Assembly (NCBI GenBank): GCA_963820825.1
Contig: CAWGBN010000006.1
Coordinates: forward strand, 1 to 64,000
Length of the DNA: 64,000 nucleotides
From: Vulcanimicrobiota bacterium
GTDB lineage: Bacteria; Vulcanimicrobiota; Vulcanimicrobiia; Vulcanimicrobiales; Vulcanimicrobiaceae
Reading direction: 5' to 3'
Part shown: in pieces, positions 1,517-26,676 of the stretch
Layout: every line of letters begins with the position of its first letter
Numbering within the stretch: position 1 is the stretch's first letter
Translations under genes and position numbers: made by a program
Notes under the pieces: generated by a model
Database searches by the model: none
What the model saw: the letters and a program-made list of their open reading frames with translations, nothing else
Told to the model about the DNA's origin: nothing

Positions 1517-2701
1517 ATGTCGACAGCCGGCGGCAGCCATCGCCCGATTCGCATTCTTGCCCTCCTCGACGATGAGGTTGTCTCGGGGAAGGTCAAGCCG
1601 GTCTTGACGCTTGCACGATACGCACGAGAAGATGCGCAGACTCTGCGACCGCTCGAAATATCGATGCTGACCTTTTCACGCAGCGAGGACGAGTCGGAGC
1701 TGGCCACGTCCCTCGCTCGAGAGGGCTTCGCGATCGACGTGGTGCGCGAGCGGCATCGATTCGATTTCCGCGTCTTTGCGCAGCTGCGCGCAATCGTCGA
1801 CCGAATCCAGCCCGACGTGCTCTGGACGCACGGCTCGAAGACGCATTTCCTCGCCCGTCTTGCAGGCTTGCACCGCGGGCGGACGTGGATCGCATTTCAC
1901 CACGGTTACACCGAGACGAGTCTCGTGTGGACGTTGTACGAGCAACTCGACCGCTGGTCTTTGCGCGGTGCCGATCGCGTTATGACGGCATGCGAGGCAT
2001 TCGCCGCCGATTTGAACGCGCGTCTCGGCATCGACGCAGAGCGGCTGCGAGTGCACCGGTCTCCCATCGCGGCGCGCTCGCAACCGCCGCTTCGCCGCGA
2101 GCAGGGAGGCTTGCGCGCCGAACTCGGCCTTTCGCCGGACGAACGGGTCGTCGTCTCGGTCGGCAGATTATCGAAGGAGAAGGGCTATGCCGACCTGATC
2201 GCCGCCATGGCGGAAGTGCGACAGAATTTCGGCCCACGAACGGCGCTGGTGATTGTCGGGGAGGGACCGGAACGCACCCATCTCGAGAGTATTAGGAACC
2301 GACTGGGGCTCACCGGGTCGGTCCATCTGGCAGGATATCAACCAGACGTATCGGCCTACTACGAGCTCGCCGACGTCTTTGCTTTGACGTCGTACAGCGA
2401 AGGTTCGCCCAACGTGCTGTTGGAGGCAATGGATGCCGGAGTGCCGATCGTTGCAACCGCGGTCGGGGGCGTCGTCGAGATGATCCGCGACCGGGAGCAC
2501 GGTTTGCTGGTGCCGGCCGGCGCTATCGGCGCGATCGCAGGCGGCATCGTAACACTCCTGCACGATGCCGACCTGCGGCTTGCGCTGGCGACCGCTGCCC
2601 GCGAGTCGCTGAGCGCGTACGCTCCCGAGCGATACTATGCCTCGATTCGCTCGGTCTTTGAAGAGAGCGTCACAGCTCTACCGGCGCGGCGGCGGGGCTA
2701 A
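1517..2701 (+). CDS. Glycosyltransferase family 4 (GT-B)
   Basis: VGRLSKEKG, IVGEGPER, S-Y-S-E-G-S-P-N-V-L-L-E-A-M and VATAVGG motifs. Confidence 0.9.
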   Translation: MSTAGGSHRPIRILALLDDEVVSGKVKPVLTLARYAREDAQTLRPLEISMLTFSRSEDESELATSLAREGFAIDVVRERHRFDFRVFAQLRAIVDRIQPDVLWTHGSKTHFLARLAGLHRGRTWIAFHHGYTETSLVWTLYEQLDRWSLRGADRVMTACEAFAADLNARLGIDAERLRVHRSPIAARSQPPLRREQGGLRAELGLSPDERVVVSVGRLSKEKGYADLIAAMAEVRQNFGPRTALVIVGEGPERTHLESIRNRLGLTGSVHLAGYQPDVSAYYELADVFALTSYSEGSPNVLLEAMDAGVPIVATAVGGVVEMIRDREHGLLVPAGAIGAIAGGIVTLLHDADLRLALATAARESLSAYAPERYYASIRSVFEESVTALPARRRG

Positions 2702-4550: not shown

Positions 4551-4677
4551 GAAATCGCTACGTTGAGTTAGAATAATTTCGGCACGGGAGTTCGTATCTT
4601 AGCCACAGATATGGCGCGGCAAATTCGGCCTCGCGCCACGACGGGAGGAAACGCGTTACACCACGCTCGCGATCGAA

Positions 4678-7187: not shown

Positions 7188-7385
7188 GGAAGCGTGCGGT
7201 CAATAGAGTTGTCGCTTTTCTCTGAGCTTCAACGTCGCTGCGATGAAATGCGCCGCTCTCGTCGAACGCAACATTTTGGTGTTCTCGCTCGTTGCCCTCA
7301 CAGGCGCGGGCAATACAAGCTTTCGGTGCGCCATCGCTAATGCGTATGGCCCCGCGGCATTAGGCCGCGTGCATTCGGCTTTGGA

Positions 7386-8948: not shown

Positions 8949-9965
8949 TTGAACGCAGTACGCAGACAGGTAAAAAGCGCTCTTCTCTCCGCGTTTGCCC
9001 GCGTCGGGGTCGATCGACTCGGGGTCTCGTTGCACGTGCGCGATTCCCTCGTCCTGGTCTACCACGGAATCGTCGGCTCGGAGAAGCGCGAGCCGTTCCG
9101 CTATCATCATACGGTCGACGAGTTCGCCGTTCATCTCGAATGGCTCGGTACCCACTGCGAGCCGGTCGGGCTCGCCGATTTCACGCGCTGGAAGCGCGGT
9201 GAGTGGCGCCCTTCCAAGCCGCCCGCGCTCATAACCTTCGACGACGGCTACCGCAACAACGAAACGATCGCCGCGCCGCTCCTGGCTGCCAAGGGCTTCC
9301 CGGCGCTATTCTTTATCAATACTGGCTACGTCGGCGGCAAGCACGTTCTTTGGCCGGACGAGGTCTTCGTACGTGTCCTAGCCTGGACGGGTACGTCGCT
9401 CGAAGATCCCAGCGGTTCGGTCCGCGTCGTCACCACCGAAGCTCAAGAGCGCGAGCGGTTGGCATTCGATATGGTCGAGGCGTGCAAGAACTGCAGCGAC
9501 GACCGCCGTCTCGAGTTTATGGCTTACTTGGCGCGCGAGACCGCGCATTGCGACCCAATGGTCGACCCTGAAGCGCAAGAGATGCTCTCGTGGAGCGAGG
9601 TTGACGCGCTCGCCGCAGCGGGATTCGATCTCGGCTCGCATACGGTAACGCATCCCATTCTCAGCCGGCTATCGCCCGAGGCCTTGCGTGCCGAACTACG
9701 CGATAGCCGCGCCACGCTGGAAGAGCGGGCGGGCCGGCGATGCAACGCGCTGGCGTATCCCGGTGGCCGCTTGCACGACGTTACGGATGAGGTGCTCTCC
9801 GCAACTGCGGACGCCGGCTACGACTTAGCCTTTACGGTATCGGATCGCTGGTGCGACCGCGAGGCTCATCCGCTGCGGGTCGATCGAATGTCGACGCCCG
9901 GTCACGGCACCCACGCTACCTTCGCCTTGCACGCTAGCGGTTCGCGGCGCTGGTTTCCACGCTAG
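8949..9965 (+). CDS. Polysaccharide deacetylase (CE4/NodB)
   Basis: LVYHG, ITFDDGY, GSHTVTHPIL and LAYPGG motifs. Confidence 0.9.
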   Translation: MNAVRRQVKSALLSAFARVGVDRLGVSLHVRDSLVLVYHGIVGSEKREPFRYHHTVDEFAVHLEWLGTHCEPVGLADFTRWKRGEWRPSKPPALITFDDGYRNNETIAAPLLAAKGFPALFFINTGYVGGKHVLWPDEVFVRVLAWTGTSLEDPSGSVRVVTTEAQERERLAFDMVEACKNCSDDRRLEFMAYLARETAHCDPMVDPEAQEMLSWSEVDALAAAGFDLGSHTVTHPILSRLSPEALRAELRDSRATLEERAGRRCNALAYPGGRLHDVTDEVLSATADAGYDLAFTVSDRWCDREAHPLRVDRMSTPGHGTHATFALHASGSRRWFPR

Positions 9966-11382
9966 GAGCGTTTGGCGCTCTCGCGGGCAACTGCGCGCAT
10001 AAGCGCGCTGCAAGAAGCATCTCCGTAAACAATAACCACGAAAACTTCGTCTCGAGAACGTCGACGAAGAGCGCCGCGACCAAGAGCCCGACGAACGCCG
10101 CCCGCAACGGCGTGCCCAGCCAGGAGTAAGGCTGTCCGGGCTTGATCGATCGCAGGCTCCGGTATTGGAGAACCAGCGCCGCGATCGTGACGACGATTCC
10201 CACGACGCCGAGCTCGGTGGACGTCGAGATGATCAGACTGTGAGGCGCTCGAGTCCAGCCTGCGAATTGCGGCTCGTAAGCCATCAAGAATGCGCGATCG
10301 TACGCCGTAGAAAAAGCTCCGACGCCGTTGCCGAGCAGCCAGTGCTCGCGGAAAGTCTCAACCGCAACTCTCCAGATATCAAAACGCCCCGCCGCATTCA
10401 CCCCGCTCCGCTCCTCGAGGAAGCGCGATGCAATCTCGTTGGGAATGGCGAAAAAGAGCATTACCGCGCCGAAGAGCATCGAACCCAATGCGAACCGATA
10501 GCGGCTGGCGAGGATTGCGACGATCGCCATCGCGGCAAGCGCGAGCGTCGTGCCGCGTGAAGCGCTCAGATAGATCGCAGCAATCGGAAAGAATAGGACC
10601 GCCACCATTGCGATCCGGCGCCATGCGTTCGTTTTCACGATCGTCGCGACGGTCAAAGCAACCGGCAGCAGTAATGAGGCTCCAAACCGGTTGGGGTCGA
10701 GCGTCGCGGTTCCGAAGGTCAGGTACAGGCGTCCAACCTGACCGGCGACATTGGAGAGCTCGCTGCGCGCCATTACGATAGCGACGATTCCCGCGATGAC
10801 GCCGCTTGCGATCGTCGCGCCGACGATCGTGTCGAACTCTGCTGCTTCGAGCGGCACCGCCGCCAGAATGGCCATTAAGCCGAAAGTCGAAACCACCGTC
10901 CCCAAGTCTTGCGCGGATAACGCCGGATCGATCGTCCAACTCGTGCTCAGCGCCATCAATCCGACGAGCGCCGCCCAGCCGAATACCGCATACGGCACTT
11001 GCAGCTTCGCGCGCCTCTGCACGAGGAGGGCTACGGCCGCGAGCACCGCCGCGACACCCAATATCTTCCCGACGGTCAGTGATTGACCGACCAGTAGCGC
11101 GTCATCGATTGGAACGAGGACCGCGTAGAGCGAGAAGAACGCCACGAGCGGTCGCCTGGCGACGAAGTACGCCACGAGCGGAAGCGCGGCGATTCCGATG
11201 CCGAGCGGAACGCCCACGGACGACCTGCAGATGCCCGGGATCGCGAGCGGGGCGCTGCAGTCGCTCGCGGTCAGCGCGACGATGAGGCCGAGGAGCGCGC
11301 AGGCTGCGACGATCGTCGCTGCAAGAACTCCGACAAGCTTTACATCGTTGGAAGCGATCGTCGGCCGCACGCTCGTCGCCAT
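9934..11382 (-). CDS. wzy: O-antigen ligase / Wzy-like polymerase
   Basis: Multi-TM; DPNRFG, SASRG, GR..IW, GNGVG and PHS motifs of the Wzy_C family; ATG 11382 follows the flippase stop. Confidence 0.8.
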   Translation of the reverse strand: MATSVRPTIASNDVKLVGVLAATIVAACALLGLIVALTASDCSAPLAIPGICRSSVGVPLGIGIAALPLVAYFVARRPLVAFFSLYAVLVPIDDALLVGQSLTVGKILGVAAVLAAVALLVQRRAKLQVPYAVFGWAALVGLMALSTSWTIDPALSAQDLGTVVSTFGLMAILAAVPLEAAEFDTIVGATIASGVIAGIVAIVMARSELSNVAGQVGRLYLTFGTATLDPNRFGASLLLPVALTVATIVKTNAWRRIAMVAVLFFPIAAIYLSASRGTTLALAAMAIVAILASRYRFALGSMLFGAVMLFFAIPNEIASRFLEERSGVNAAGRFDIWRVAVETFREHWLLGNGVGAFSTAYDRAFLMAYEPQFAGWTRAPHSLIISTSTELGVVGIVVTIAALVLQYRSLRSIKPGQPYSWLGTPLRAAFVGLLVAALFVDVLETKFSWLLFTEMLLAARLCAQLPARAPNAPSVETSAANR

Positions 11383-11384: not shown

Positions 11385-12681
11385 TTAGCGCCCTCGTACC
11401 ACGCTCAAGCAACTCGTGAGCAACGCGTGATACGGCCGCAGATCCGCCCACGAGACGAGGAAGAGCTGCCTGGCGCGGTAGCCGGTGCGGCGCACAAAGT
11501 AGATCGCTGCGGCGGTGAAGGCCGCACTATACGAGATCGAGGTCGCGACTGCGGCGGCGATAACGCCGAAGCGGTGAAGCGTCAGCGCTGTGACGATGGC
11601 GCAAAGCGTTGCGGAGAGCGCGCTAAAGAAAGACGGCATCCACGGCCGGCCGAGCTGCTGCAAAAAGAACGCAGACAATGCCGGCATCATGCTGTAGGCG
11701 ACGATGCCGGGAAGCAGGGCAATGGTGACCACGGCTCCGTAGGCGAAGGCGGGACCGTAGACCAGCGGTACGAGAGTTCGAACCGAGAGGGCAACGCAGC
11801 CGGCGGCGAGAGAAACGAGCAGGAACGAGTGCCGCATGCATTTCGCGGTAACCTCGGCCGCCCTGGCTTCGTCCTTGCCGCCGATCTCCTTGAGCGCCGG
11901 ATTGATCATCGCGCTGCTCAACTGCCAGATAAACTCGCCGAGCGCGATCCCGATCGAATAGATTCCGAGCGCCGCACTCCCGAGCATGGCGATGACGAGA
12001 AAGACGTCGATGCGAAAGTCTAAATACTGCATGAGGCTGCTGAGACACGCCTGGCTACCGAAGGTCAACTGCTCCTTTGCAAGCCCCGCGACGTCGCCGC
12101 CCGGCGTCCCGCGGTAGTAACGTCGCAACGCGAATGCCGTGTACGCTCCGCCCACGACGTAGGCCGCCGACCATACCGTTAAGGGGACCCAAAGTTTGCC
12201 GTGCGCGAAGACGATCAGCGGAACGTAGATGGTCGTGGCGATCGCTGTGGGAAACATCGCTTGAACGTTGATCGGCCGCACGTTGCCGTCGCCGAGGAAC
12301 ATGCCCGTGGACGACTGCGAAAAGATCGCGAACGGCAGCGCCAGCGCGACGAAGAGCAACATCTGCTGCGAAGGAACGAACGCCGCAATTCGAAATTAGG
12401 GCCAAGACGATGGGCGCGCTCACCGAAGCGACCACGAGAATCATCACGCGGATGATCGCTGCCGCTGGAAGACCACGTCGAGCGTACTGCCAAAGGACGG
12501 CTTTATTGTGTCCGACGGTGGCCATGAGCGCGAACCCCATGATCGTCCCCAGGTACGTCCAGTCGCCCTTACCTGCCGGGCTTAGCACGCGGGCAATCGC
12601 GATGCCGCCGGCGGCCGCGAAGAGTTGTAGCGCGACGCGTGTGGCGAGCGTCTCAACGCTCTTTTTTGCTATCTCGCTCAT
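11385..12681 (-). pseudogene. wzx: Wzx-like oligosaccharide flippase with +1 frameshift near 12390 (real or sequencing error)
   Basis: N-half IARVLSPAGKG and C-half FRIDVFLV..LG.AALGIYS are in different frames; removing one A at TCG-A-ATT joins them. Confidence 0.8.
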
Positions 12682-12711
12682 CGCCGGCGGCACCGCAAAT
12701 CGCGGGCCGAG

Positions 12712-14044
12712 CTACCTAGCTTCGGCGAGCGCCGAGGAAGCCGAGCTCCATTCGATGAGCGCCACGGTCGCCAACGTTACCAAGAGCGCGACGATCGCCA
12801 CCATGAAGAGCGCGAGCATTCGCGGCGGCTTGACGCTCGCCGAGCCGGGGTCGGCGTATTGGACGATGGAGAGGTCGCTAACGGCCATACTCTGGGCAAC
12901 GACCGCGTTGAAGTAGTTGCTTTGGATAGCATCGTAGATCGCTTCGGCCGATTTCGCTCGCCGCTGCAGCTCCGAGAGTGCCGAAATGTCGCCGGGGAAG
13001 ACGCGAAGCCGTACTAAGAGCGACGACTCCTGACTGCGTAACGCAGCGAGTTGCGCCGAGCTCCCGGCGATTTGTGCGCGCAGCGCCGCTTCCTGATTCG
13101 AAAGGCCCGCCTTGAGCGGATTCGGCTCGATCGTCGTCGACGTAACCCTCGTCTTCGGCAGAGCCTTCAAGGCCGATTCGAGGCTCTCGATTTGCTTCTC
13201 GGTTGCGACGACGTCGGGATACTTTTCGGTGAACTGCCGGCGCAGGAGGCTCAGCTCGAGCCTCTGTTGTGCCAGTTGCTGTTCGATTTGGTCGGCGGCC
13301 GGAGCAGTGCTGACGACCTTGCTTGAATCGATCGCCGCCGGAGCGGAGGCGACCTGCGAAGCGACGCTCGATAGCTGGGCTTGAGCCTGAGCGGCTTCGG
13401 CCTCGGCACTGCGTTCTTTCGACTGGATATCGCCGATCGCACTAAGAATGTTCGTCGTTTGGCTGGCGACGTCGGCGAGTTCGTGTTCCGATTCGAATCG
13501 CGTGAGCGCCGATTCCGCTCGTTGCAGGTCGCTACCCGCTTTCTTCAAGGCGATCGAGAGCGAGGCCGCGGCTTCCGAGGCTTGCGAGGCCGCGAGTATT
13601 CGCTGCTGCGCTATGAAGGCGCGAGCGAACTCGTTGGCAACCGTCGCGGAGTCTTCTGCGTCGTGCCAGTCGACGCTAATTTTTGACGAGATCGGAGTTC
13701 GTCACCGGCGTCACCACGACGTTCTTTGCGAGCATGTCTCGCGCCGTCGTTTTGAGGCCGAGGTTGCGAATGACTCGCTCGGCGACGGCCGGTTGGTGCG
13801 CGAGGGCGACGTAGGTCTCCATCGCGGTATCGCGGTTCCAAGTCAGGAGCGCGTCGATCTGCGGATAGGCCGTCGACGTAAGTGCGGTGTCGGGGCGTTT
13901 CACCAGCACCTCGCTGGCAGTCGAGTAGCTGCGAGGCAACACGAAGACGGCCGCGCTGCCGACGATCAGCAGCACGATGAAAAGCCCGATCGCTAAGCGG
14001 CGGCGGCGGCGAATCGAGGCGACGAGCGATGTAAGTTCGTACAC
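12712..14044 (-). pseudogene. Polysaccharide co-polymerase (Wzz/GumC-like, no kinase domain) with +1 frameshift in an A5 run at 13680-13684
   Basis: N-terminal TM then PRSYSTASEVLV; coiled coil with FTEKYPDVV; C-terminal P...P+TM; one extra A gives AAT-TAG instead of ATT-AGC-GTC. Confidence 0.8.
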
Positions 14045-14050: not shown

Positions 14051-14767
14051 TTATTTCGGTCCGCAGCAGATCCCGGCGGCCGGGTTGATGAGTAAGTAGA
14101 GATAGTAGAGCGCGAACGGAATGTTCGTTAGATTTGAGATATTGTACTGTCGCGCCTTCGGTACGTAGACCACGTCCCCCGGCTGCAAGACCGGATTCGA
14201 GGAATAATCGGCGTCGAGCAACGTTTTGTAGAGGTTGATGTTGTAGAGGTGCGGGGCGCCGTCGACGACGCGGTTGAGCGTGATGTGATTGAGATCGGCC
14301 GACGACGTGGGGCCAACGCCGGCCTTCGCGATGGCATCCGCGAGGCGGTCGCCTTGCCGCAGCTCGATCGAGCCGCCGTGATCGACGCTGCCGAGAACTT
14401 CGACCGTGGCCGGGGTTCCTTTTACGACGATGACGCTCACCGTCGGATGAATCACGTACGCGGCCAGCGCGGCGGCAATGCGCTGGCCGGCGGCGTCGGG
14501 CTGCAGGCCGCCCACGCTAATCGAACCGATGAGCGGATAGGTGATCGTTCCATCGCTGAGCACGGTCACCGTCTGCGAGAGCGCTTGGATCGCCGTCGTC
14601 GAGGGTTGCCCCTGCGACGGGACCTGGGGTACGCCTTGGGTACCGTATACGATGATCTGCAGTTGATCGTCGGCGCGAATGGCGTACGTGCTTGTCTGCG
14701 CTGCAGCGGCAGCCGGCGCGATTAGGCAAAACGCCAGCACGGCGGCTACGGCGGAACGAACCGACAT
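14051..14767 (-). CDS. wza: Polysaccharide export protein (Wza/OPX family)
   Basis: Signal peptide; Y.I...D.L.I.V, V.SDGTITYPLIG, SLBB domain, LQPGDVVYVP. Confidence 0.88.
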   Translation of the reverse strand: MSVRSAVAAVLAFCLIAPAAAAAQTSTYAIRADDQLQIIVYGTQGVPQVPSQGQPSTTAIQALSQTVTVLSDGTITYPLIGSISVGGLQPDAAGQRIAAALAAYVIHPTVSVIVVKGTPATVEVLGSVDHGGSIELRQGDRLADAIAKAGVGPTSSADLNHITLNRVVDGAPHLYNINLYKTLLDADYSSNPVLQPGDVVYVPKARQYNISNLTNIPFALYYLYLLINPAAGICCGPK

Positions 14768-14909
14768 CGCGTATCTAGCCACCGGTGCCCGCCACATGCG
14801 AAAAGAACAGGCTGTGCTTAAGCAAAGCATGTAATGATTCGAGCTTACGGCTTAGCATCCGCCTTCCCTGCTCGCCCACACGGGCGCGGGAAATAAATTT
14901 CCCCGGCAA

Positions 14910-15881
14910 CTAACGGCCTTCCCGCCCCGAGGGGCTCTCGGCGCCTCCCGGCGCGTATGGATCGCGCCCGAGCCGGCGGCGCACCTGATAGGCGGCCCAG
15001 CGCCACTCCAGCCGGCGATGCTGAGCCCGCGTAATCGTATACTCCCCCCGCTGCGCTTCGATACGACCGAGGACCGATTCCACGGGCGCGTACCATCCGT
15101 TACGCCCGGCGAGGTCTTCGAGCACCCGGATCACCCGCGGATCGACGCTTCCATCGCGAACGAAGCCGTCGGCGACGTGCGCGTAGACGATGCAGCAGCC
15201 GCCGGAGCGTTCGAGCTCGTCGACCCGCGCAGAGGAGAGCAGTCGTACGAATCGCTCCACGTCCGAACCATCGCTTGCCGAGAACCATCGCGCCGCGGCC
15301 GGACGACGTGGATCGTGGTAGGGCATCCACGGATCCTTGCGAGTCGTGATCGGGTCGTCGAAGTTAAAACCGCGGACGTAGCGCAACCTTTGAGCGCACA
15401 GATCGGCCCAATAGTACGGAGTCCCCGGCGTCGAGCCGAAGAAGCGACCGCGCCCCGAGAAACGCCGAAACATTTCACGCGCGATCGGATCGTCGAAGCG
15501 TTCCTCACCCCAGTAGAGCGACTCCGGATTGACGGCGTGGTTTGCGTAGGTTCGCGGATATGCGCCGAATATCTCGCGAAAACTCTCCAGCGCTTGCGCG
15601 TGCGCCGCCGTTTCGGTGCCTCCCGAGCGCGCGCCGTGCCAAGCGATTTCAAAGCCTTCTGCTTGGAGCTCGAGCGTCCACTGCCGATATGCCGAATCTT
15701 GCAGACTATCCGCTCGATAGGGATCGTCGGGCGGAGAATCGAGCACCCAGGCCGTCTTCGTGGTACGCAAGCCGTAGCGGATCAGGCCGTCGTAGAAGGG
15801 CTTAACGGCCTGCCAACGGGCGCGATCCGTATCGTCCATAATCGTGAAGGCGAATTTCTTGCCCTGCGGCCAGTGCGTCAT
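14910..15881 (-). CDS. Conserved hypothetical protein, NodB/deacetylase-like barrel
   Basis: FAFTIMDDTD, GFEIAWHG, ANH and YAH motifs resemble a CE4-like metal site; ATGA-coupled to the upstream gene. Confidence 0.6.
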   Translation of the reverse strand: MTHWPQGKKFAFTIMDDTDRARWQAVKPFYDGLIRYGLRTTKTAWVLDSPPDDPYRADSLQDSAYRQWTLELQAEGFEIAWHGARSGGTETAAHAQALESFREIFGAYPRTYANHAVNPESLYWGEERFDDPIAREMFRRFSGRGRFFGSTPGTPYYWADLCAQRLRYVRGFNFDDPITTRKDPWMPYHDPRRPAAARWFSASDGSDVERFVRLLSSARVDELERSGGCCIVYAHVADGFVRDGSVDPRVIRVLEDLAGRNGWYAPVESVLGRIEAQRGEYTITRAQHRRLEWRWAAYQVRRRLGRDPYAPGGAESPSGREGR

Positions 15882-16864
15882 GCTTCGCGGTTCGAAAGAA
15901 TTCCGAAAACCATGTGCATGTCGTACGGCTCGAGATCGATCTCGGCTAGCCGCTTCCGTGCCGAAATGTCGTATAAGGCGATGTGGCTCGGTTTTTCGGG
16001 GCCTTTAATCAAGTCCTTGACCCATTTGACGTTCTCTTTGAAGCGCGTCGTTCTCAGTCGCGTGAACCCTACCCAGACGTGCGATTCGTCCAGGACTAAG
16101 AGCCCGCGGCACCATCCGAGAATTGAGTGGTCCGCGTTGTCGATCTGGTTGAGCTCAACGACGCGCTCGGTCTCGAGCGTTTGCGCGTTCACCACCACGA
16201 TCGTTCCGTTCACCGTCGTGAAATAGATCTTTCCGCCATGGACTACCCCGTCGTGGCAGACCTCCTCTCCTACTGAAATCCGCGGCCCGGGCTCGGTCAG
16301 ACAGATCGCGTCGCTTTGATGACATCGCGTAACCCACAGGGCGCCGTTGCGAAAGAACGTGTAGTTCGGATGGGAGAGGTGCGGTTTCGTGGTCGGCACT
16401 TTGCGATAATCAACGTCGCGTGAGAACCGAACCCAGGGGCTTTCGCCGAGGACGCCCCACTCGCGCAGAGTCTTTCCCTCGGGGGTGACTTCCAAAACCA
16501 TGTCGAGTCCGGTATTCGTTACGATCAGATTTCCGCTGCCGGTCGGGCGCACGTGATGGACGTCGTTGAAACAGGGCAGCGAGAGGTGCCGCACGAGATC
16601 GAACCGGGGAAGCTCGTAGACGAGCGCCTCAGTCCGCGTGCACGTGTAGAGCCGATTTCCTTCCAGCGTGCCGCCCTCGAAACTGATCGAAGGCTCGACG
16701 TCCGGACACAAGGCGGGCGGCGTGATATATTCGGCGCACAGTTCGACCGAAGCGCGCTCGGGATCGACGCGCAGAATGATGGCCTTCTCGTAGGCCTCCC
16801 ACTCTCGCCGCGCCTTTAAACCGACGCGTTTTTGTGTAGCGCCGGTTACGTACAACATCGTCAC
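15878..16864 (-). CDS. Conserved hypothetical His-motif beta-propeller (DUF4915/TIGR03032-like)
   Basis: Short beta-strand repeats; NDVHH, HPN, HDG and GWCRGL motifs. Confidence 0.55.
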   Translation of the reverse strand: MTMLYVTGATQKRVGLKARREWEAYEKAIILRVDPERASVELCAEYITPPALCPDVEPSISFEGGTLEGNRLYTCTRTEALVYELPRFDLVRHLSLPCFNDVHHVRPTGSGNLIVTNTGLDMVLEVTPEGKTLREWGVLGESPWVRFSRDVDYRKVPTTKPHLSHPNYTFFRNGALWVTRCHQSDAICLTEPGPRISVGEEVCHDGVVHGGKIYFTTVNGTIVVVNAQTLETERVVELNQIDNADHSILGWCRGLLVLDESHVWVGFTRLRTTRFKENVKWVKDLIKGPEKPSHIALYDISARKRLAEIDLEPYDMHMVFGILSNREA

Positions 16865-16896: not shown

Positions 16897-17892
16897 TCAC
16901 CCGGTAAGAGCGGGTCGAGGTTTTCGCAGTCTCGCGAAGCCCCAGAGCCAACCGAATCCGAACGAAAGGTGCATGATGGCAATGGCGACCGGCTCCAAAA
17001 GCGCGATTCCGAGTCGCTTCGATCTGCGCAGACCGTCAATGAAGCCGATGGAAAGAAATCCGGCATAGAGCGCCGGCACGATGGCCGCCCAAATTCCGTA
17101 TCCGAGCAGGCCGAGAATTGCCGAAGCCGTCAAGCCGAGCAGCAGCGCCGGCGGGGCGTAAACCCGCCACGGGACCGAGCCCGGATGCTGTACTTCGGTC
17201 CAACGCCGATAGAAGCCGTAGCGAACGTATTGCCTCGCTAGTCCCAAGAACGATGGGCGCACGTAGTACGTTGCCTCGATTCCAGGGGAGACGAAGACCC
17301 GGTACCCGGCCTTGCGAAGGCGGTAGTTGAGCTCGCAATCTTCGTTCACGGCATTCGTCTCGTTGTAAAGACCGATCTCGTCGAAAATACGGCGCTCCAT
17401 GAACGTGCCCATAACGGAGTCGCACCATTGTTCCTGCTTCGTGTGGCGGTACTTCGAGTCGCCGACGCCGAGGGGGGAGGACATTGCAAGAGCGATCGCT
17501 TCGCCGGCCGGCCCTTCACCTCGATGAGAGACGACGCCTCCTACGTTCGCAGCGCCCGTGCGGGCTTTGACATCGAGGCAGCGTGCGAGGTAGGTCTTCG
17601 CAAATCGGGCGTGCGCGTGAATGACGCAGATGATCGAGCCCCGCGCCTCTTTGATCGCGAGATTATATCCGTAGACTTGATGGCGCCGGGGGTTCTCGAT
17701 CAGGCGTACGTTATGCTCGACGCCATACGATCGCACGATCTCCCGCGTCTTGTCGGTGCTGCCGCCGTCGGCAACCAAAACCTCGACGTCGGCATCGAGT
17801 CCCTCTTGGCCGAACATGTCGTCGAGCACCCCGCCAATGTAGCGCTCCTCGTTGAGGGTCGGGACGACGACGGAGATCGTAAGACCGGCCAT
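16897..17892 (-). CDS. Glycosyltransferase family 2 (ExoA-like)
   Basis: ISVVVPTLNEE, DGGSTD, NEDCELNYRL and RQY..YG motifs; C-terminal TMs; ATG overlaps the PPTase stop (TGATG). Confidence 0.9.
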   Translation of the reverse strand: MAGLTISVVVPTLNEERYIGGVLDDMFGQEGLDADVEVLVADGGSTDKTREIVRSYGVEHNVRLIENPRRHQVYGYNLAIKEARGSIICVIHAHARFAKTYLARCLDVKARTGAANVGGVVSHRGEGPAGEAIALAMSSPLGVGDSKYRHTKQEQWCDSVMGTFMERRIFDEIGLYNETNAVNEDCELNYRLRKAGYRVFVSPGIEATYYVRPSFLGLARQYVRYGFYRRWTEVQHPGSVPWRVYAPPALLLGLTASAILGLLGYGIWAAIVPALYAGFLSIGFIDGLRRSKRLGIALLEPVAIAIMHLSFGFGWLWGFARLRKPRPALTG

Positions 17893-18662
17893 CAAACTGC
17901 CTCCGAGATCGGTCTCGACGACGCGGCGCCGATGTCGGCGACGGCTCGCCATTGAAACGAGAGCGGTCTCTTGCAATCTTGCGCGAGCACCGCGACGGCA
18001 GCGACCTGGTGCGGACTCGGGCGGTGGAGAGAGAACGCGCAGCCCGCAGTCGAAATGGGCCGGCCGTCTTTGCGCTGCGCGACCGTGAGCCGTTCGCCGG
18101 CATGGGCCAACCCAGCTCCCGTCGCTTTGACGAACGCCTCTTTGAGCACCCATTGCTCGAAGAATCGATCGATCTGCACGTTCGACGGGAGCCCGGCGAG
18201 CCGCGCGCGCTCGCCGCGAGAAAAGAAGTGCCGCGCCACCAGCGCCACGTCGACGGGCTGCGAAGTATCCTCGGCATCGACGCCGGCCATCCCGGCGCGC
18301 GTGACGACGCAGATCGCCAAACCCTTGGTATGCGTGAGATTGAACTGCAGCGAAGCGAAACGCTCCGGTGCCGCTACCACCGGCTTGCCGTTGCGGCTCG
18401 TATCGAAGCGCCAGGTCCCCGGATCGACTCCGGTGTATCGCGAGAGCGTCGCGCGGCAGAGCACGCGCGCCGCGAGATACTCTTCGCGCATCTCATCGCT
18501 GAGAAACGATTCGTATTGCGCGCGCTCCTCGGCGGGCAGGCGCGCGAGCCACCGGTCTCGCACGGCGGGCGCGCGCAGCTGCTCGGTCCGCAGCTGCCAA
18601 GCATGCGCGGCCGTTGCGAGCTCCTCCCACTCGAGGCGGCTACTCGATGCTGGCATCGCCAT
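17892..18662 (-). CDS. 4'-phosphopantetheinyl transferase (Sfp-type)
   Basis: GKP, FNLTH, GVDAE and WVLKEAFVKATG motifs. Confidence 0.92.
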   Translation of the reverse strand: MAMPASSSRLEWEELATAAHAWQLRTEQLRAPAVRDRWLARLPAEERAQYESFLSDEMREEYLAARVLCRATLSRYTGVDPGTWRFDTSRNGKPVVAAPERFASLQFNLTHTKGLAICVVTRAGMAGVDAEDTSQPVDVALVARHFFSRGERARLAGLPSNVQIDRFFEQWVLKEAFVKATGAGLAHAGERLTVAQRKDGRPISTAGCAFSLHRPSPHQVAAVAVLAQDCKRPLSFQWRAVADIGAASSRPISEAV

Positions 18663-19785
18663 CGTATTCGCCGGGATCCCAAAACTTTTTTCGGCGCAAC
18701 TCGACTGCAAGCGTGGGGTCGACGGCGCGGTAAAAGTACGACCAGTTCTGCTTTCGGCGGTATGGAGCGAGCGCGTCGAAAGCGGCCGTTCGAGCTACCC
18801 CGGCTCCGGGTTTGTCGAGAACGCACACGTCTTCCGCGACGCATTTTCGCTGCGCCGCCGCGAGCAAGTCCGGAAGGAGATCGACGTCCCGCTCGATGCT
18901 CTGAAAATCGACCAGGCGCATGCGGCGAACCTCTCCGGTGGCGCCTTGACGCTTGAAGATGCCGTACGCCCGAAGCTGGCGATTCTGCGACGCGGTTAAG
19001 ATCCACAGACGTCCCCGGCGCATCGGTACCGAAAAGTGCCACGAGAGCGTCGCACTATCTCGTGCCGCCATCAGCGTGTTGGGGTTTTGACGCAGCAGCT
19101 CGTCCCAGAACGTATCGAAGCGCGAATCGAACCGGTCGGTCGATTCGACGTCGAATGCGGAGCGCGTCTTGGGGAAGTCCCGGCTCAAGACGAGGTCCTT
19201 TAGCCGCAGCGCGGCGCCGGCGGGGGGCGCGAGAACCCGTACGAGCGGCACGTTGAGCTTCTGCAACGCCCTGGTCGCGAAGGCGCGATAGCCCGTGACG
19301 AAATAGGAGATCGTCTCCCAATCGCCGGCCGGAATGCGGTTCGAAAATTCGTTGAATGCCGCTAACGCTGCCGGTCCGATGGTCGTATCGACGAAGACGT
19401 CCACGCACGGTTGATTGAACCGCTCGTCGAGGAGCCAGAGCGCGTAACCGCGATACTCGGGTGCGACCACCCACCCCCGTCCGCTCGCCGCCATAAGGTG
19501 CTCGCCGCGAAAGTGATAGAGCAGCGGAATGTTACCGATGCAGCCGACGATCTGCCGGTCGGCGGTCTCCAGCACCCACCCGATCGGCCATCGCTTACCG
19601 AGATGCGGCCAAAGCGGACTCCCATGCCAGAGCATGCGCCAGTCGTCCGGAGACGAGGCTTCCGGAGTGAGTGCCGCCTCTAAGCGTACGATCTGTTCGT
19701 AGTCGTCGAAACGCGCGGGCCGCAGGTGCGGACGCGCGCGTCCCGGCATCTGCGGCAACTCGGCCCTCGCGAGATTCGCGCTCAT
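18640..19785 (-). CDS. GNAT-fold acyl/aminoacyl transferase-like protein (tandem GNAT)
   Basis: LRPA..DDYEQI, IVGCIG, WVVAPEYRG (GNAT motif A), second half RD...L.W; C-terminal DGD; ATGA-coupled to the P450. Confidence 0.6.
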   Translation of the reverse strand: MSANLARAELPQMPGRARPHLRPARFDDYEQIVRLEAALTPEASSPDDWRMLWHGSPLWPHLGKRWPIGWVLETADRQIVGCIGNIPLLYHFRGEHLMAASGRGWVVAPEYRGYALWLLDERFNQPCVDVFVDTTIGPAALAAFNEFSNRIPAGDWETISYFVTGYRAFATRALQKLNVPLVRVLAPPAGAALRLKDLVLSRDFPKTRSAFDVESTDRFDSRFDTFWDELLRQNPNTLMAARDSATLSWHFSVPMRRGRLWILTASQNRQLRAYGIFKRQGATGEVRRMRLVDFQSIERDVDLLPDLLAAAQRKCVAEDVCVLDKPGAGVARTAAFDALAPYRRKQNWSYFYRAVDPTLAVELRRKKFWDPGEYDGDASIE

Positions 19786-21020
19786 GACGCCGCTTCGTAT
19801 CGAAGCGGAAGCGCCACCAAACCGCGCAGACCGAGATTTTCGCGCCAGACGAGCTCCTCGCTCGCCAGCTCGAGCGCCGAGAACCGGCGCAGAAGCGCCT
19901 CGAAAGCAACCTGCGCTTCGATGCGCGCCAACGGCGCTCCGAAGCAAAAATGCGCGGCCCATCCGAACGCGAGATGACGGTTATCCTCACGGTCGAAGTT
20001 GAGGCGATCCGGATCGGGAAAACGCTCCGGATCGCGGTTCCCCGCAGCCATCACCGCGATAACCGCCTGCCGCTTGCGAATTCGCTTCCCACCCAGAACG
20101 ACGTCGTCGGGGGCTAAGCGCGCCGTATGCTGGCTGGGGCTTTCGTACCGCAGCAGCTCCTCGACCGCGGCGGGCATGATCTCCGCGTCATCGCGCAGCC
20201 GCGCGAGCGCGGCGGGATTGCGCAAGAGCGTCAGCATGCCGTTCCCGATCAGATTCGTCGTCGTCTCCTGGCCGCCGACCATCGTGACGATGCAATTGGC
20301 GATGATCTCTTCATCGGTCAGGCGGTCTCCGTCGACTTCGCTGGACAGCAGCGATTGAATCAAACCTTCGCGCGGACGTTTGCGTTGTTCGCGAAGCGCC
20401 GCTTCGAAGTACCCGGTCAGCTTTTCGACGGCGTCCAGCACCGAGTCCAACTGATCGGGATTGTGCTGAAAGTTTCCCAGCATTCCCGCGAAGGTCGCCG
20501 ACCAGTCTTTGAGCGTGCGATGATCCTCCACCGGCACGCCGAGCATCTCCGCCGTAACGATTGCCGGAAGCGGCTCGGCAAAGTCTGCCAGTAGATCCAT
20601 GCGTCCGGTGCCGCGCGCGATCGCCTCGTCGATGAGCCCCTCGGCGATCTTTTCGATGTGACCGCGAAGCGCGCGCACGCGCGCCGGCATGAAGGCCGGA
20701 GCCGCGAGCTTGCGCAAGCGCGTATGTGCCGGTGGATCGAGAAAGAGCATCTGCTTGACCATGACCTTCGCGACCGGCCCGACGTGTGGTGCTCCCAACG
20801 CTTCGAAAAACTGCGGCGAGGGAGCCCGGTCGGCCGAATAGCGCGTCAAAACGGTCACGACGTCTTCGTATCGAGTGACGACCCAAGCGTGCAGATAGGG
20901 ATCCCAGTGCACCGGCGCCTCTTCGCGTAATCGGCGATAGAGCGGATAAGGGTCGGCGAGTACGTCCGGATCGAGCAGGTGATAGAGACTCAGCGGCGTT
21001 TCGGCCGCATTTTCGGTCAT
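19782..21020 (-). CDS. Cytochrome P450
   Basis: DPPAHTRLR, GGQETT, EELLR, NRDP..F..PD and FGWAAHFCFG heme motif; ATGA-coupled to the NRPS stop. Confidence 0.95.
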   Translation of the reverse strand: MTENAAETPLSLYHLLDPDVLADPYPLYRRLREEAPVHWDPYLHAWVVTRYEDVVTVLTRYSADRAPSPQFFEALGAPHVGPVAKVMVKQMLFLDPPAHTRLRKLAAPAFMPARVRALRGHIEKIAEGLIDEAIARGTGRMDLLADFAEPLPAIVTAEMLGVPVEDHRTLKDWSATFAGMLGNFQHNPDQLDSVLDAVEKLTGYFEAALREQRKRPREGLIQSLLSSEVDGDRLTDEEIIANCIVTMVGGQETTTNLIGNGMLTLLRNPAALARLRDDAEIMPAAVEELLRYESPSQHTARLAPDDVVLGGKRIRKRQAVIAVMAAGNRDPERFPDPDRLNFDREDNRHLAFGWAAHFCFGAPLARIEAQVAFEALLRRFSALELASEELVWRENLGLRGLVALPLRYEAAS

Positions 21021-22861
21021 CGAGGCACGCATTCTCGGGCATCCGCGCGCATCAAACGCGCAACTTCCTTGGCGAGTTCGCGCACCGTCGGCGCGTCGAA
21101 AACCTGCCGAAGCGGCAGTTTCACGTCGAATGCTTCGCGGATGCGCGCCACGAGCTGCACGCCGAACATCGAATGCCCGCCGATCATGAATAGGTTCTCG
21201 TCGACGTCGATGGCCGGCCGGCCCATCAGCACCGCCACGAGCCCGGCGATTTGCTCCTCGAGGTCGGTCATTTTGCCGTTGGCCGCGGACTTCGGCATCA
21301 GATTATCGGCGCGCGGCACCGGCAGGGCCGCTTTGTCGAGCTTGCCGTTCGACATGACCGGCAAAGCCGGAATCGAGACGAAGAATGCGGGGATCATGTA
21401 GCTCGGGAGTTTCGCAGCGAGATAATCGCGCAGCTCGGATTCCGTCGGCTGCGCGTCGGCGACCGGAACGACGTAAGCCGCCAGCGCGGGTCCGCCGGCC
21501 GGATCGTCGACCAGCGAAACGGTGGCGGCAGCGATCGCAGGATGCCGGCTTAGGCACGCATCGATCTCGCCCGGCTCGATACGGTAACCGCGGATCTTGA
21601 CCTGATCGTCGAAGCGTCCGAGAAATTCGAGCTCGCCGTTCTCCCGCGAACGTACGCGATCGCCCGTGCGATACAGGCGCAGCGATTCACCCGATGCGGT
21701 GATGTACGTAACGAAACGTCTCGCGGTGAGCTCGGGCATGTTGCGATATCCCCGCGCTAGGAGCGGACCGCCGATGCAGAGCTCGCCCCACTCGCCCGCA
21801 GCGACCGGACGCAACGCCTCGTCGAGAACCATCGCCGTTGCGTTGTCTATCGGCCGGCCGATTGTGGGCGCGACCGCATCTCCTTCGCCCGGCGCAACTG
21901 CGCCCGACGTCGCAACCACCGTGCATTCCGTGGGGCCGTAGTTGTTGACAACCGCAAACGGCAATCCAGCCGGCGGCCGGCGCAAGAGCGCGTCGCCGCC
22001 GGTCAACAGCACGCGCAGCGCGGCATCTGCGGGCCACTGCACGCGGAACAATTGCTCGGCCATCACCGTGGGTATGAAGCCGATCGTAATCTTCTGCTCC
22101 ACGATCCAGTCGCGAAGCAGTTCGGGCGCACGCCGCGTCGCTTCGTCGGCGATGTGCAGGCTCGCGCCTGCGGTAAGGTAGGGCCAAATCTCCCAAGCCG
22201 CGGCATCGAACCCAAGGCCGGCGACCTGACTCGCGCGATCGAACGCGGAGACCGCAAAGGCCGATTGGTGCCAATCGATCAAGTTGCAGAGGCCGGCATG
22301 CGATACCTCGACGCCCTTGGGCTGCCCCGTCGTGCCCGAGGTATAGATGACGTACGCGAGCGTTTTCGAATCGATATCCGCCGCCGCGAAGGCCGGGCCG
22401 CTCGCGCTCGGGCGGTCGACCGCGAAGACCGGCCACGGCGCCTGCGCGAACTGCGTCGCAAAGCGCGCGCCGGTGACGAGCGCAACGATGCCGGCATCGG
22501 CAAGAATCGCCGCGATCCGGTCGTCGGGCGTAGAGGGATCGAGGGGTACGTACGCCGCGCCGGCCTTCAGCGCCGCCAGTGCCCCGACGACGAAGTGCGT
22601 CGAACGCTCCAGTAGCAGCCCGACGCAGCGTTCCGGCCCGGCACCGGCCGCCCGCAGGCCCGCCGCAAGCCGGTTCGCTTCGCGTTCGAGCTCGGCATAC
22701 GTCAGACGCCGCAGCTCGTCGCTCACGGCGATCTTACTGGGCGTCGCGCCGGCATGGGACGCGATGCGACTGGGAATCGAACGCGTCGCAGCCGCATGAG
22801 CGGATCGCATGCTGCCGGCTTCTTCCGAGCGCGGTCCCGTGCGCGAGCGGATTATCTCCAT
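21017..22861 (-). CDS. Stand-alone NRPS adenylation-PCP didomain (Leu-type code DAWFLGNVVK)
   Basis: LTYAEL, AYVPLDP, YTSGTTGQPKG, YGPTE, GELCIGG, YRTGD and NGKLD cores; PCP GGHS; no C or TE domain; AGGAG SD before ATG 22861. Confidence 0.93.
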   Translation of the reverse strand: MEIIRSRTGPRSEEAGSMRSAHAAATRSIPSRIASHAGATPSKIAVSDELRRLTYAELEREANRLAAGLRAAGAGPERCVGLLLERSTHFVVGALAALKAGAAYVPLDPSTPDDRIAAILADAGIVALVTGARFATQFAQAPWPVFAVDRPSASGPAFAAADIDSKTLAYVIYTSGTTGQPKGVEVSHAGLCNLIDWHQSAFAVSAFDRASQVAGLGFDAAAWEIWPYLTAGASLHIADEATRRAPELLRDWIVEQKITIGFIPTVMAEQLFRVQWPADAALRVLLTGGDALLRRPPAGLPFAVVNNYGPTECTVVATSGAVAPGEGDAVAPTIGRPIDNATAMVLDEALRPVAAGEWGELCIGGPLLARGYRNMPELTARRFVTYITASGESLRLYRTGDRVRSRENGELEFLGRFDDQVKIRGYRIEPGEIDACLSRHPAIAAATVSLVDDPAGGPALAAYVVPVADAQPTESELRDYLAAKLPSYMIPAFFVSIPALPVMSNGKLDKAALPVPRADNLMPKSAANGKMTDLEEQIAGLVAVLMGRPAIDVDENLFMIGGHSMFGVQLVARIREAFDVKLPLRQVFDAPTVRELAKEVARLMRADARECVPR

Positions 22862-22915
22862 TCTTCTCCTACTACCTTCGAATAGCAATCAGTGAACGAG
22901 TAAAGGAACTGCTCT

Positions 22916-24346
22916 TTAGTACCAGCGCTGGAACAGCACTTCAACCCCGGTCTTAAACGTAATGAAGATGTCGAGGATCGGCGAGTAGTTTTCGATGTAG
23001 AATAGATCGAGATCGAGCCGCTCTCCGATCATCTCGAGTCCGGGGCTACGACGCATGTGGACGTGAGCCCAGCCGGTAATGCCGGGGCGCACCAAGTGGC
23101 GCTCGTCGTATCGCGCGTGCTCGTCACGGAAGCGCTCGACGAAGACGGGCCGCTCGGGACGCGGCCCGACGATCGACATCTCGCCGCGGAGAACGTTGAT
23201 GAACTGCGGAAGCTCGTCGATGCTGGTCTTGCGAATGAACGCTCCGACCTTCGTCGTGCGGTTGTCCTTGACCGGATCGCCGATTGCCCAGACGGGACCG
23301 CACTTCACTTCGGCGTCCTGCACCATCGAACGCAGCTTGAGTATCTCGAAGGGCTTTCCGGCTCGCCCCACACGCGTTTGACGGTAGACGACCGGACCAC
23401 CCGACTCTAGATAGATCGCGAGCATCGCCGCCAACATGATCGGGCCGGTCAGCACCAGGGCTATGGAAGAAACGACGATATCGAAGATTCGCTTCAATGC
23501 GAGGTTGACCGGCTTGCACGCGGCGACGCGCCCGGCGATGAGCACCGGTTGGCGTTGCGACCCCAGCACGCCTAACGGCCCGGCCTGCGGCGAGAATCCG
23601 GGCGGAGCGAAGCCGATCGTGATGTTATCGCGCGCCGCGCGCTCGACGAGGAGTGCGGTGCTCACGCTCGGCATGCCGGCAAATATGATCTCGTCGCACC
23701 CCTGCGCTTTGACCCGATCGTACCAGGACGCCGCAGAGACGTCGGCCGCGGCCTTGATGGCCCTTTCCGTCTTCTGCATCGGGACGAGGCGCAGCGAGAT
23801 CGAGCTCGCATCGAAGGCTCGGGCCATCGGACTGAGATATTCGGGAGGCGCGACCAGCGCGATGCGGCGTTTGTGCCGTTCGCGGTTCATCTTGAAACGC
23901 CCGTGGATGAGCGAACGGCCCGTCCCGACGAGAACGACCGAGATCGCGAAGGAAGCCAGCAGTACGAGCCGCGAGCTCGACAACGACGGGACGATGCTGA
24001 ACAGTATCAACAGCGGCGCGACACCCGTCGTCAATCCAAGGATGACATTGTACCATTCGTCTTTGCCATCGAGCGCGTACGAGATGCGATAGAGTCCAAG
24101 CACCTTGAACGTTACGATCGAACCAGCGGCCCAGATCACGGCCGATTGGACGACGCGTTCGTAATCGAGCTGATCGTTGAGAGAGACGACGCACCACACG
24201 GCGAGAAACGACGCAATGGCGAGCATGAGGAGGTCGCTGAAAAATAACGCGGAGGCCCTACCGAATTCGAAGGTCTGGATGGCGCGGCTGCGCTCGGATG
24301 CTCGCGGCGGCGAGTGGGCTGCGACGGCCAGGTCGGGCAACGCCAT
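22916..24346 (-). CDS. Priming glycosyltransferase (polyprenyl-phosphate glycosylphosphotransferase, WcaJ/GumD-like)
   Basis: 4-5 TMs; KRIFD, KLRSM, RKTSIDELPQFINVLRGEMSIVGPRPE and RPGITGWA motifs. Confidence 0.93.
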   Translation of the reverse strand: MALPDLAVAAHSPPRASERSRAIQTFEFGRASALFFSDLLMLAIASFLAVWCVVSLNDQLDYERVVQSAVIWAAGSIVTFKVLGLYRISYALDGKDEWYNVILGLTTGVAPLLILFSIVPSLSSSRLVLLASFAISVVLVGTGRSLIHGRFKMNRERHKRRIALVAPPEYLSPMARAFDASSISLRLVPMQKTERAIKAAADVSAASWYDRVKAQGCDEIIFAGMPSVSTALLVERAARDNITIGFAPPGFSPQAGPLGVLGSQRQPVLIAGRVAACKPVNLALKRIFDIVVSSIALVLTGPIMLAAMLAIYLESGGPVVYRQTRVGRAGKPFEILKLRSMVQDAEVKCGPVWAIGDPVKDNRTTKVGAFIRKTSIDELPQFINVLRGEMSIVGPRPERPVFVERFRDEHARYDERHLVRPGITGWAHVHMRRSPGLEMIGERLDLDLFYIENYSPILDIFITFKTGVEVLFQRWY

Positions 24347-25332: not shown

Positions 25333-26676
25333 CTACTTCTTGGGCAGCGGGCGTGCCGGATTTCCCGCGACGCGTTCCCCTTGCGCCACGTCCTTCGTCA
25401 CCACCGAGCCTGCACCGGTGAGCGCTCCATCACCGATCGTAACCGGAGCGACCAGCGAGGTATTCGAACCGATCGATACGCCGCGTCCGACGACCGTTGG
25501 GTTCTTCTTCGAACCGTCGAAGTTACAGGTGATCGTCCCCGCGCCGACGTTGGTATCTTCGCCGATCGTCGCATCGCCGAGATACGAAAGGTGGCTCACT
25601 TTCACCCCGCGCGCCAGCTTCGACTTTTTAATTTCGACGAAGTTGCCGACGTGCACGCAATCGTCGAGTCGCGTCTCGCCGCGCAAGTGCGCGAAGGGCC
25701 CGACCGTAACGTCGCTGCCCAGCGTCGAGTTCAGGATCACGCTCTCCCGAACGGTCACGCGCGCGCCCAGCGTCGCGTGCGTGAGCCGTGCATTCGGCCC
25801 GATTACGCATCCTTGCCCGAGCGTGGAGAGCCGGGAGATCGCCGTGTTTGGATAGATCACCGTATCGGCCCCGATCTCGAGCTCGGGCTCGAGGTAGGTC
25901 GTCTCGGGATCGACGATGGTCACGCCGTCGCGCATATGCTTGGTGCAGAGCCGCGCGTTCATCTCTTTACGCGCCTGCGCCAGCTCGACCCGATCGTTGA
26001 TGCCGAGGACGTGCAGGTGGTCGCCGGCGACGACCGGCTTGACCGATCGGCCGCTCTCGACAAAATAGGCCACGGCGTCGGTCAGATAGTACTCGGATTG
26101 CGCGTTGTCATCGCGCAGCTGCGCGATCGCTTCGCGCAGCGCGGCTTCGTCGAATGCGTAGATCCCGGCATTCATCTCGTCGATTGCGATCTCACTCGGC
26201 GTCGCGTCGCGCACCTCGACGATACGCTCGACCGCCGAACCGCGGCGGACGATGCGCCCGAAGCTCGACGGGAGCGGCATTTTGACGGTCACGAGCGACA
26301 TCGCCGCACCGTCGCGCGGCTCCGAATCGAGCGCTTCGACGACGCCGCGGAAGATTTCGTGCGTCACCAGCGGCATATCGCCGCAGGCGACGACGACGCG
26401 GCCGCCGGCGCGCGGCTCTAAGCGCTCGAGCGCGACGCGCACGGCGTGGCCGGTCCCGAGCTGCTCGGCTTGGAGCACGCTCTCGACGCCGAAGCCGCCG
26501 ATCTCTTCTTGCAGCTCGTCGTTCACCACGACGAGGATCTCGGCGATGCCCGCCTCGCGAAGCGCGCTGATGACGTACCAGAGCATCGGACGGCCGCAGA
26601 TTTCGTGCAGCACTTTCGAGCGCGCGCTCTTCATGCGCGTGCCCTTCCCCGCGGCGAGAACGATGGCGCGAATCAT
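25333..26676 (-). CDS. glmU: Bifunctional UDP-GlcNAc pyrophosphorylase / glucosamine-1-P acetyltransferase
   Basis: LAAGKGTRMKS, QLGTGHA, EYYLTD, GNFVEIK and HLSYLGD motifs; ATGA-coupled to gltX. Confidence 0.97.
   Translation of the reverse strand: MIRAIVLAAGKGTRMKSARSKVLHEICGRPMLWYVISALREAGIAEILVVVNDELQEEIGGFGVESVLQAEQLGTGHAVRVALERLEPRAGGRVVVACGDMPLVTHEIFRGVVEALDSEPRDGAAMSLVTVKMPLPSSFGRIVRRGSAVERIVEVRDATPSEIAIDEMNAGIYAFDEAALREAIAQLRDDNAQSEYYLTDAVAYFVESGRSVKPVVAGDHLHVLGINDRVELAQARKEMNARLCTKHMRDGVTIVDPETTYLEPELEIGADTVIYPNTAISRLSTLGQGCVIGPNARLTHATLGARVTVRESVILNSTLGSDVTVGPFAHLRGETRLDDCVHVGNFVEIKKSKLARGVKVSHLSYLGDATIGEDTNVGAGTITCNFDGSKKNPTVVGRGVSIGSNTSLVAPVTIGDGALTGAGSVVTKDVAQGERVAGNPARPLPKK

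Follow-up and report, generated by a model that had tools for sequence, protein, structure and literature searches.

Among the routes by which bacteria modify surface polymers and amino sugars, an adenylation (A) domain and a carrier aminoacylate the polymer in the D-alanylation of teichoic acids (DltA/DltC) and the glycylation of lipid A (AlmEFG), and an acyl group held on a carrier is altered or passed on to a deacetylated amino sugar in the butirosin (BtrI/J/O/H) and Nod-factor (NodB/NodA) systems. In the Caulobacter holdfast, the tandem GNAT HfsK would acylate amines bared by the polysaccharide deacetylase HfsH, a deacetylate-then-acylate logic put forward as a proposal (PMC5362036). A PCP-tethered amino acid stands beside a P450 in the OxyD, NikQ, P450sky, Tem23 and proposed PlyR systems, and beta-hydroxylation of leucine on a PCP has precedent (PMC9321520, PMC3943440). 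The C. difficile type B flagellin locus was also considered as an NRPS precedent and rejected, since it has a FemAB-like and an ATP-grasp enzyme instead. Here, a 64,000-nucleotide stretch of DNA from a Vulcanimicrobiota bacterium (the window) was analyzed. It carries a cassette for which no description was found in the literature searched (titles and abstract openings, with subscription journals largely absent). We read the whole as a cytoplasmic load-oxidise-transfer module that would put a leucine-derived acyl group on a polysaccharide amine, and judge this reading, which was built from sequence, to have about an even chance of being right.

The operon lies on the minus strand in the order priming transferase, A-PCP, P450, GNAT, PPTase, GT2, two conserved unknowns, wza, wzc, wzx and wzy. 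Its first gene (22916..24346) encodes a priming polyprenyl glycosylphosphotransferase (PF02397; TIGR03025 above cut-off). This is followed by a stand-alone A-PCP didomain (21017..22861; Pfam AMP-binding, AMP-binding_C and PP-binding), a BioI/PksS-like cytochrome P450 (19782..21020), a 381-aa tandem GNAT recognized by its predicted fold and belonging to a family without a name (18640..19785), an Sfp/HetI-type 4'-phosphopantetheinyl transferase (PPTase) assigned by family profiles (17892..18662) and a GT2 glycosyltransferase (16897..17895). The A-PCP/P450, P450/GNAT and PPTase/GT2 pairs overlap by 4 nt each and GNAT/PPTase by 23 nt, so that the P450 is encoded with its PCP-bearing partner in overlapping genes. 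The first conserved unknown (15878..16858), possibly a beta-propeller on the basis of a sub-threshold Pfam match only, is kept in relatives and shows no signal peptide by sequence and hydropathy; a paralogue with 65% identity lies on contig C2 of the same genome. The second (14910..15881) has deacetylase-like motifs and no Pfam match, and its nearest named Atlas clusters were DUF2334/PF01522 at 0.85-0.86, which serves as a lead only. The minus-strand genes that follow encode a Wza-type polysaccharide export protein (14051..14830; Pfam), a Wzz/Wzc-type chain-length protein (12712..14044), a Wzx flippase (11385..12693) and a Wzy-type polymerase/ligase (9934..11382; PF04932). A NodB-type polysaccharide deacetylase gene (8949..9965, plus strand; PF01522, with TFDDG and HTVTH motifs intact) converges on the operon, and a GT4 glycosyltransferase gene, whose orthologue directly adjoins the cassette in relatives, lies 8 kb further (1517..2701, plus strand). 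The deacetylase, with no evident signal peptide by sequence and hydropathy, is probably the maker of the acceptor amine. The locus has all the parts by which a Wzx/Wzy-dependent system is recognized: priming transferase, glycosyltransferases, flippase, polymerase, and chain-length and export proteins. No ferredoxin partner was seen within the operon, and a promoter/terminator scan remained at chance level (2 found, 3.4 expected). Three large proteins are encoded between the GT4 and deacetylase genes (2701-8654), two of them without a Pfam match and the third with six GloVer choice-of-anchor repeats (TIGR03803). A glmU gene (25333-26676), probably housekeeping, precedes the operon by 1 kb on the same strand and is syntenic in the closest named relative, Candidatus Cybelea (L039).

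Two operon genes are interrupted by one-base insertions, wzc near 13680 and wzx near 12381, which might mean that the cluster is decaying in this genome and that the cassette is no longer used there. Each gene has one extra base relative to L039, where both are whole, and one of the insertions falls within a T run. Since the four cassette genes are all intact and comparable splits are frequent in other loci, as expected of assembly errors, decay is considered extremely unlikely.

The A-PCP scored 406.5 bits against the amino-acid adenylation profile TIGR01733 (cut-off 317.4) and contains the A-domain core motifs. Its open reading frame extends over 21017..22888 on the minus strand, with the likely start at the ATG at 22861, which is preceded by AGGAG; the L039 protein aligns with it from 22864. 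The serine of the GGHS motif (21170..21172, minus strand), the phosphopantetheine site by motif, belongs to a signature that was invariant in 47 of 47 aligned PCPs. With the queries used, this was the only NRPS module in the genome (one match), and neither a second NRPS module nor a further PCP or close PPTase was found. The match to DltA was weak (228 bits, cut-off 476). Membership of the Dlt system was rejected, as the score against TIGR01734 was 220 bits (cut-off 559.85) and no dltB, dltC or dltD partners occur among the operon genes. A search of plasmids returned no match to the GNAT and, for the A-PCP, identities of only about 42-44% to ordinary NRPS modules.

The initial annotation had read the adenylation pocket as DAWFLGNVVK and assigned it to leucine. 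The motifs named for this reading were located in the sequence as FDAAAWE (22210-22190), ITIGFIP (22090-22070), VLLTGGD (22012-21992) and VNNYGPTECTVVAT (21949-21908). Nine pocket residues (D, A, W, F, L, G, N, V and V, with codons at 21914..22207, minus strand) fall inside the interval of 21910-22215 given for the code, whereas the tenth, the A10 lysine of NGKLD (21341..21343, minus strand), lies outside it. Among solved structures, PDB 8HLK, the C1-A1 portion of McyB, matched the 183-residue pocket region best (199 bits), followed by LgrA (109 bits), GrsA 1AMU (77.8 bits) and SrfA-C (68 bits). An alignment to 8HLK ran gap-free through the code positions and gave identical residues, McyB1 and the window both reading D, A, W, F, L, G, N, V and V, the window's Asp corresponding to D668 and its second Asn to N756 in the chain numbering of McyB1. 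The GrsA numbering of the code positions was taken from known motifs and the McyB anchor.

The initial annotation attributed DAWFLGNVVK to Leu-activating Bacillus modules of the gramicidin S, tyrocidine and surfactin synthetases. In McyB1, L-Leu is activated best in vitro and is seen in the crystal bound by D668, N756 and K953 (bioRxiv 10.1101/2023.11.13.566838). The same code is reported for four Leu modules of the scytocyclamide NRPS (PMC7524897), and ranks with the most frequent Leu/Ile/Val-group codes in the text of PMC12283262, being absent from the machine-read supplement of that paper. The leucine assignment thus held, with the same ten residues as McyB1 and the scytocyclamide modules, and the A domain very probably activates L-leucine. 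A substrate other than plain leucine (Ile, Val, Met, Phe or ready-made hydroxy-leucine), or action of the P450 on a free substrate or on the glycan, would be conceivable because codes are imperfect predictors and the closest characterized domain is about 55-60% identical over the core, as estimated by eye. Equal codes can yield different products, and Table 2 of PMC2174460 has McyB1 with Asn at 330. Such a substrate is nonetheless very unlikely, given a match of ten residues in ten to a Leu-bound crystal structure, and given that feeding of 3-hydroxyleucine is reported to give no rise in hydroxylated variants for modules with the same code (PMC7524897).

The code was also conserved beyond the window. 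In 51 non-identical cassette A domains with a full core, DAWFLGNVV was found in 50 and DAWYLGNVV in one; pairwise core identity within this set went down to 50%, and rows below 55% identity or without the full core were left out, among them the internally deleted domain of locus L089. That copy (L089:448-2580) is degenerate, its A-domain deletion running into P450 sequence. The conservation exceeds chance, and 57 of the 195 core positions are conserved to the degree of the code positions. A leucine code by itself is common and ordinary, and it is the genomic context that constitutes the finding. McyB1 and the LxaI/LxaJ Leu modules share the ten-residue code with the window, the McyB1 pocket aligning without gaps, yet these belong inside multimodular peptide synthetases and come with a C domain, whereas the window has a stand-alone A-PCP in a polysaccharide operon. 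The window domain keeps the RGxR motif typical of elongation modules, also found in McyB1, which was counted against the load-oxidise-transfer reading, and the McyB1 A-PCP is described as much weaker without its C domain (bioRxiv 10.1101/2023.11.13.566838).

The P450 was the most conserved part of the cassette, with identities of 65-89% across phyla. Among the matches listed, its profile ranked BioI first (332 bits) and PksS second (321 bits) in the PDB, and a fold search with the predicted model (pLDDT 82) placed BioI and PksS amid CYP107/109 entries; OxyD and P450sky were not among the PDB matches listed. The I-helix of the 54 aligned P450s reads GGQETT in one half (27) and GGLETT in the other (27), while that of OxyD is given as G-x-N-E-T (PMC10465960). 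By this Asn, absent in 54 of 54 rows, the P450 does not fit the OxyD/P450sky type, one position being compared. The window also differs from the OxyD-type systems in having no TE and no downstream NRPS. The structure of BioI has been solved on an acyl-ACP. In addition, a C-like domain is joined to the P450 in a single protein in L111 and adjoins it in L108. In the C-like domains of L107, L108 and L111 the HHxxxDG motif lacks its second His, and a docking role is suggested in place of a catalytic one. On this sequence evidence, the P450 likely oxidises a tethered substrate. The hydroxyleucyl group anticipated in the initial annotation stands as far as oxidation is concerned, but beta-hydroxylation is unsupported, since the enzyme departs from the OxyD/P450sky type in the single feature compared. 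The beta position is a guess, and desaturation, gamma or delta oxidation, or BioI-like cleavage may occur instead. The deep branches of a P450 tree of 34 rows were poorly resolved, and the distances of the A domain, P450 and GNAT correlated at 0.76-0.79, a value that kinship alone can give; neither was taken as evidence.

The GNAT had no Pfam match at E 0.01, none of 104 members of its family matched NCBIfam, and an Atlas search gave just weak clusters or clusters without a name. Its model (pLDDT 92.6) matched an N-myristoyltransferase best (Z 20.9, rmsd 4.4 over 316 residues). The N-myristoyltransferases were followed by other tandem GNATs and Eis proteins (NMT and Eis together at Z 18-21), and FemX reached Z 12.6, all with identities of 9-15%. 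Model and fold search showed two GNAT folds in one chain, and PF13527 was found on two homologues. Assignment to a named N-myristoyltransferase, Eis, FemABX or HfsK/PF13480 family was rejected, their profiles being unmatched. The window GNAT resembles the tandem GNAT of the holdfast, yet HfsK is FemX-like, whereas the window enzyme ranks closer to the NMT/Eis folds and has its own A-PCP and P450. At E cut-offs of 0.001 and 1e-10 the family comprises 2,933 and 1,228 representatives, respectively. Among 8,000 candidates, six longer forms were found (three C-A-PCP-TE-like-GNAT, two KS-ACP-GNAT and one PF13480-GNAT); the GNAT was the last domain in all six, domains having been scanned in five of them. 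It directly follows the ACP in the KS-ACP-GNAT fusions P0125, P0126, P0194 and L104. The C-A-PCP-TE-like-GNAT fusions (P0122-4, P0138 and L112) have a TE with Cys at the usual Ser place, and the GNAT follows a PF01522 deacetylase in P0158 and a PF13480 GNAT in P0121. As it is terminal and right behind the carrier in these assembly lines, the GNAT is read as an off-loading acyltransferase, and the window enzyme is proposed to be a carrier-protein-dependent N-acyltransferase. Co-folding of the PCP with the GNAT gave 0.38 against 0.01 for the best control, with a contact agreement of 92% and partner pLDDT of at least 82. The mark was passed by 116 of 157 solved complexes as against 2 of 215 mismatches; passes at 0.60 or under comprised 18 of the 157 solved complexes and both passing mismatches, so that the modelling offers weak support for the pairing. 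Two to three tandem GNAT paralogues, 41-53% identical to the window copy, occur at L059, L098, L101 and L077, which suggests several acceptors or steps.

From the families and the code, a five-step route can be proposed. The PPTase would arm the PCP, and the A domain, whose code is that of leucine, would activate L-leucine and load its own PCP. The P450 would then oxidise the tethered leucyl group, at whatever position. The tandem GNAT would move the acyl group from the PCP thioester to a free amine through an amide link, the acceptor being a nucleotide sugar or a lipid-linked repeat unit with its amine probably unmasked by the NodB-type deacetylase. The decorated polymer would finally be exported by Wzx/Wzy/Wza. 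A different order is decidedly unlikely, in which the product reaches the glycan but the role of the GNAT is to N-acylate the tethered leucine or to join units, attachment to the sugar being left to another enzyme or an O-ester. The one to three GNAT paralogues per locus, the PF13480 GNATs near some cassettes and the two conserved unknown proteins after the GT2 would fit such an order, but the GNAT stands last behind the carrier in KS-ACP-GNAT, the position of an off-loading enzyme, and by Pfam no other release domain (TE, C or reductase) occurs in the window's operon.

Compared with the known routes, the proposed transfer to a glycan amine works like those (Dlt, Alm, butirosin and NodAB) in which a carrier is used to aminoacylate a surface polymer, yet the cassette is a member of none that was tested. 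It differs from Dlt and Alm by its fused A-PCP, leucine pocket, P450 step and a GNAT instead of an MBOAT or lipid A acyltransferase, and from the butirosin and NodBA systems in enzyme families and products.

The distribution of the cassette was examined by scanning genome contigs with a GNAT alignment, and the best 80 of 118 confirmed stretches gave 75 loci. The A-PCP (or its PCP) and the P450 lay beside the GNAT in 52 of these; the rest comprised three with a P450 near a contig end, one A-PCP without P450 and 19 with the GNAT alone, six of which are paralogues ahead of the same polysaccharide operon. By record titles, cassettes occur in Eremiobacterota/Vulcanimicrobiota, Planctomycetota, Actinomycetota, Acidobacteriota and Pseudomonadota. 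The GNAT was found in 12 of 61 relatives, and an A-PCP orthologue in 10 of the 12 as against none of 24 GNAT-less genomes tested, one of which has an unrelated multimodular NRPS. In two genomes of 95-96% completeness, G003 and G006, the GNAT adjoins the GT4 but no A-PCP was found. The P450 was present in 19 of 301 genomes of the phylum and in 1 of 201 of the Roseomonas order. The cassette is an accessory element of patchy distribution.

The link to glycans was assessed with PF02397 in 53 de-duplicated P450 genomes (65 searched, four without a match at threshold and eight duplicates). PF02397 lay within 10 kb of the P450 in at least 11 genomes (0.79 expected), within 25 kb in at least 22 (1.98 expected) and within 35 kb in at least 26 (2.77 expected), and outside the window's phylum within 25 kb in at least 9 of 26 (0.85 expected). 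The expected values were derived from gene number and genome size, and kin inflate the observed counts, which are not independent; the counts are also lower bounds, given 47 unlisted matches and many short contigs. Among the matches listed, 27 of the 53 genomes had no PF02397 within 35 kb, and in G328, G335, G349 and G352 the nearest lay more than 500 kb away. A deacetylase profile matched 22 of 102 loci (redundant, five being training rows), compared with four matches in 2.98 Mb of the window's genome (G000). Pfam scans of 202 predicted cassette neighbours and 43 further sequences showed GT4, Wzx, Wzz, Wzy, Wza, UDP-sugar dehydrogenases and deacetylases adjoining cassettes in each of the four other phyla, L092, L103, L091, L111, L107 and L075 being examples. 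No glycan genes were found among the scanned neighbours of L063, L069, L079, L094 and L100, or among the three scanned at L104. Several relatives have the cassette some 27-30 kb away from the priming transferase, adjoining the deacetylase and GT4, so that it moves within the cluster. The glycan association is not obligate, and accessory genes gather in variable islands anyway, which was counted against the glycan reading.

These exceptions bear on the possibility that the cassette merely travels with polysaccharide islands and makes a non-glycan product, such as an N-acyl small molecule, a lipid head group or an acylated protein N-terminus. The best fold match of the GNAT is an N-myristoyltransferase, which acylates peptide amines; some cassettes are far from any listed priming transferase, L104 looks lipid-related, and the spread in the phylum and the Roseomonas order is patchy. 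On the other hand, the PPTase gene overlaps the GT2 gene inside the operon, the cassette shifts place in relatives yet remains at most about 30 kb from the same cluster, and both the deacetylase-GNAT fusion P0158 and the glycan neighbours in four other phyla argue for a glycan, so that a non-glycan product is considered rather unlikely. A substituent on a polysaccharide, as anticipated from the window alone, is plausible, with indirect backing from the context statistics and the fusions and with exceptions among loci. The earlier observation is confirmed and its interpretation partly supported. At L104 (3211-11077), a fatty acyl-AMP ligase and two desaturases accompany KS-ACP-GNAT, the GNAT ending a lipid-type assembly line.

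Extended across phyla, the proposal is more tentative, and we would hold it with some doubt: a carrier-built oxidised leucine unit, made with a P450 not of the beta-hydroxylase type, would be amide-linked to a deacetylated sugar by an NMT-fold GNAT, the family serving widely in chain release to join NRPS/PKS acyl groups to glycans. If the load-oxidise-transfer reading is true, the cassette would be an undescribed way of decorating a bacterial glycan and would tie assembly-line chemistry to exopolysaccharide tailoring. The predicted hydrophobic amino-acyl substituent on a polysaccharide has no counterpart found in the literature searched. It would also give a function to a large GNAT family without a name (the 1,228 representatives), sometimes in the place of a thioesterase, and many lone 'NRPS-like' genes in soil-type phyla would be reinterpreted. 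Since the cassette consists of four small soluble proteins and a cultured host is on record (Roseomonas sp. KE2513, L075), the idea is directly testable.

Moreover, two acidobacterial loci carry extended cassettes with a second module. In L111 (5204-15297) this module is C-A-PCP-TE with the code DILQLGMIW and adjoins sulfotransferase, Wzy and GT4 genes, and in L112 (1482-11146) it is C-A-PCP-TE-like-GNAT and adjoins a sulfotransferase gene. These cassettes possibly place a dipeptide on a sulfated glycan.
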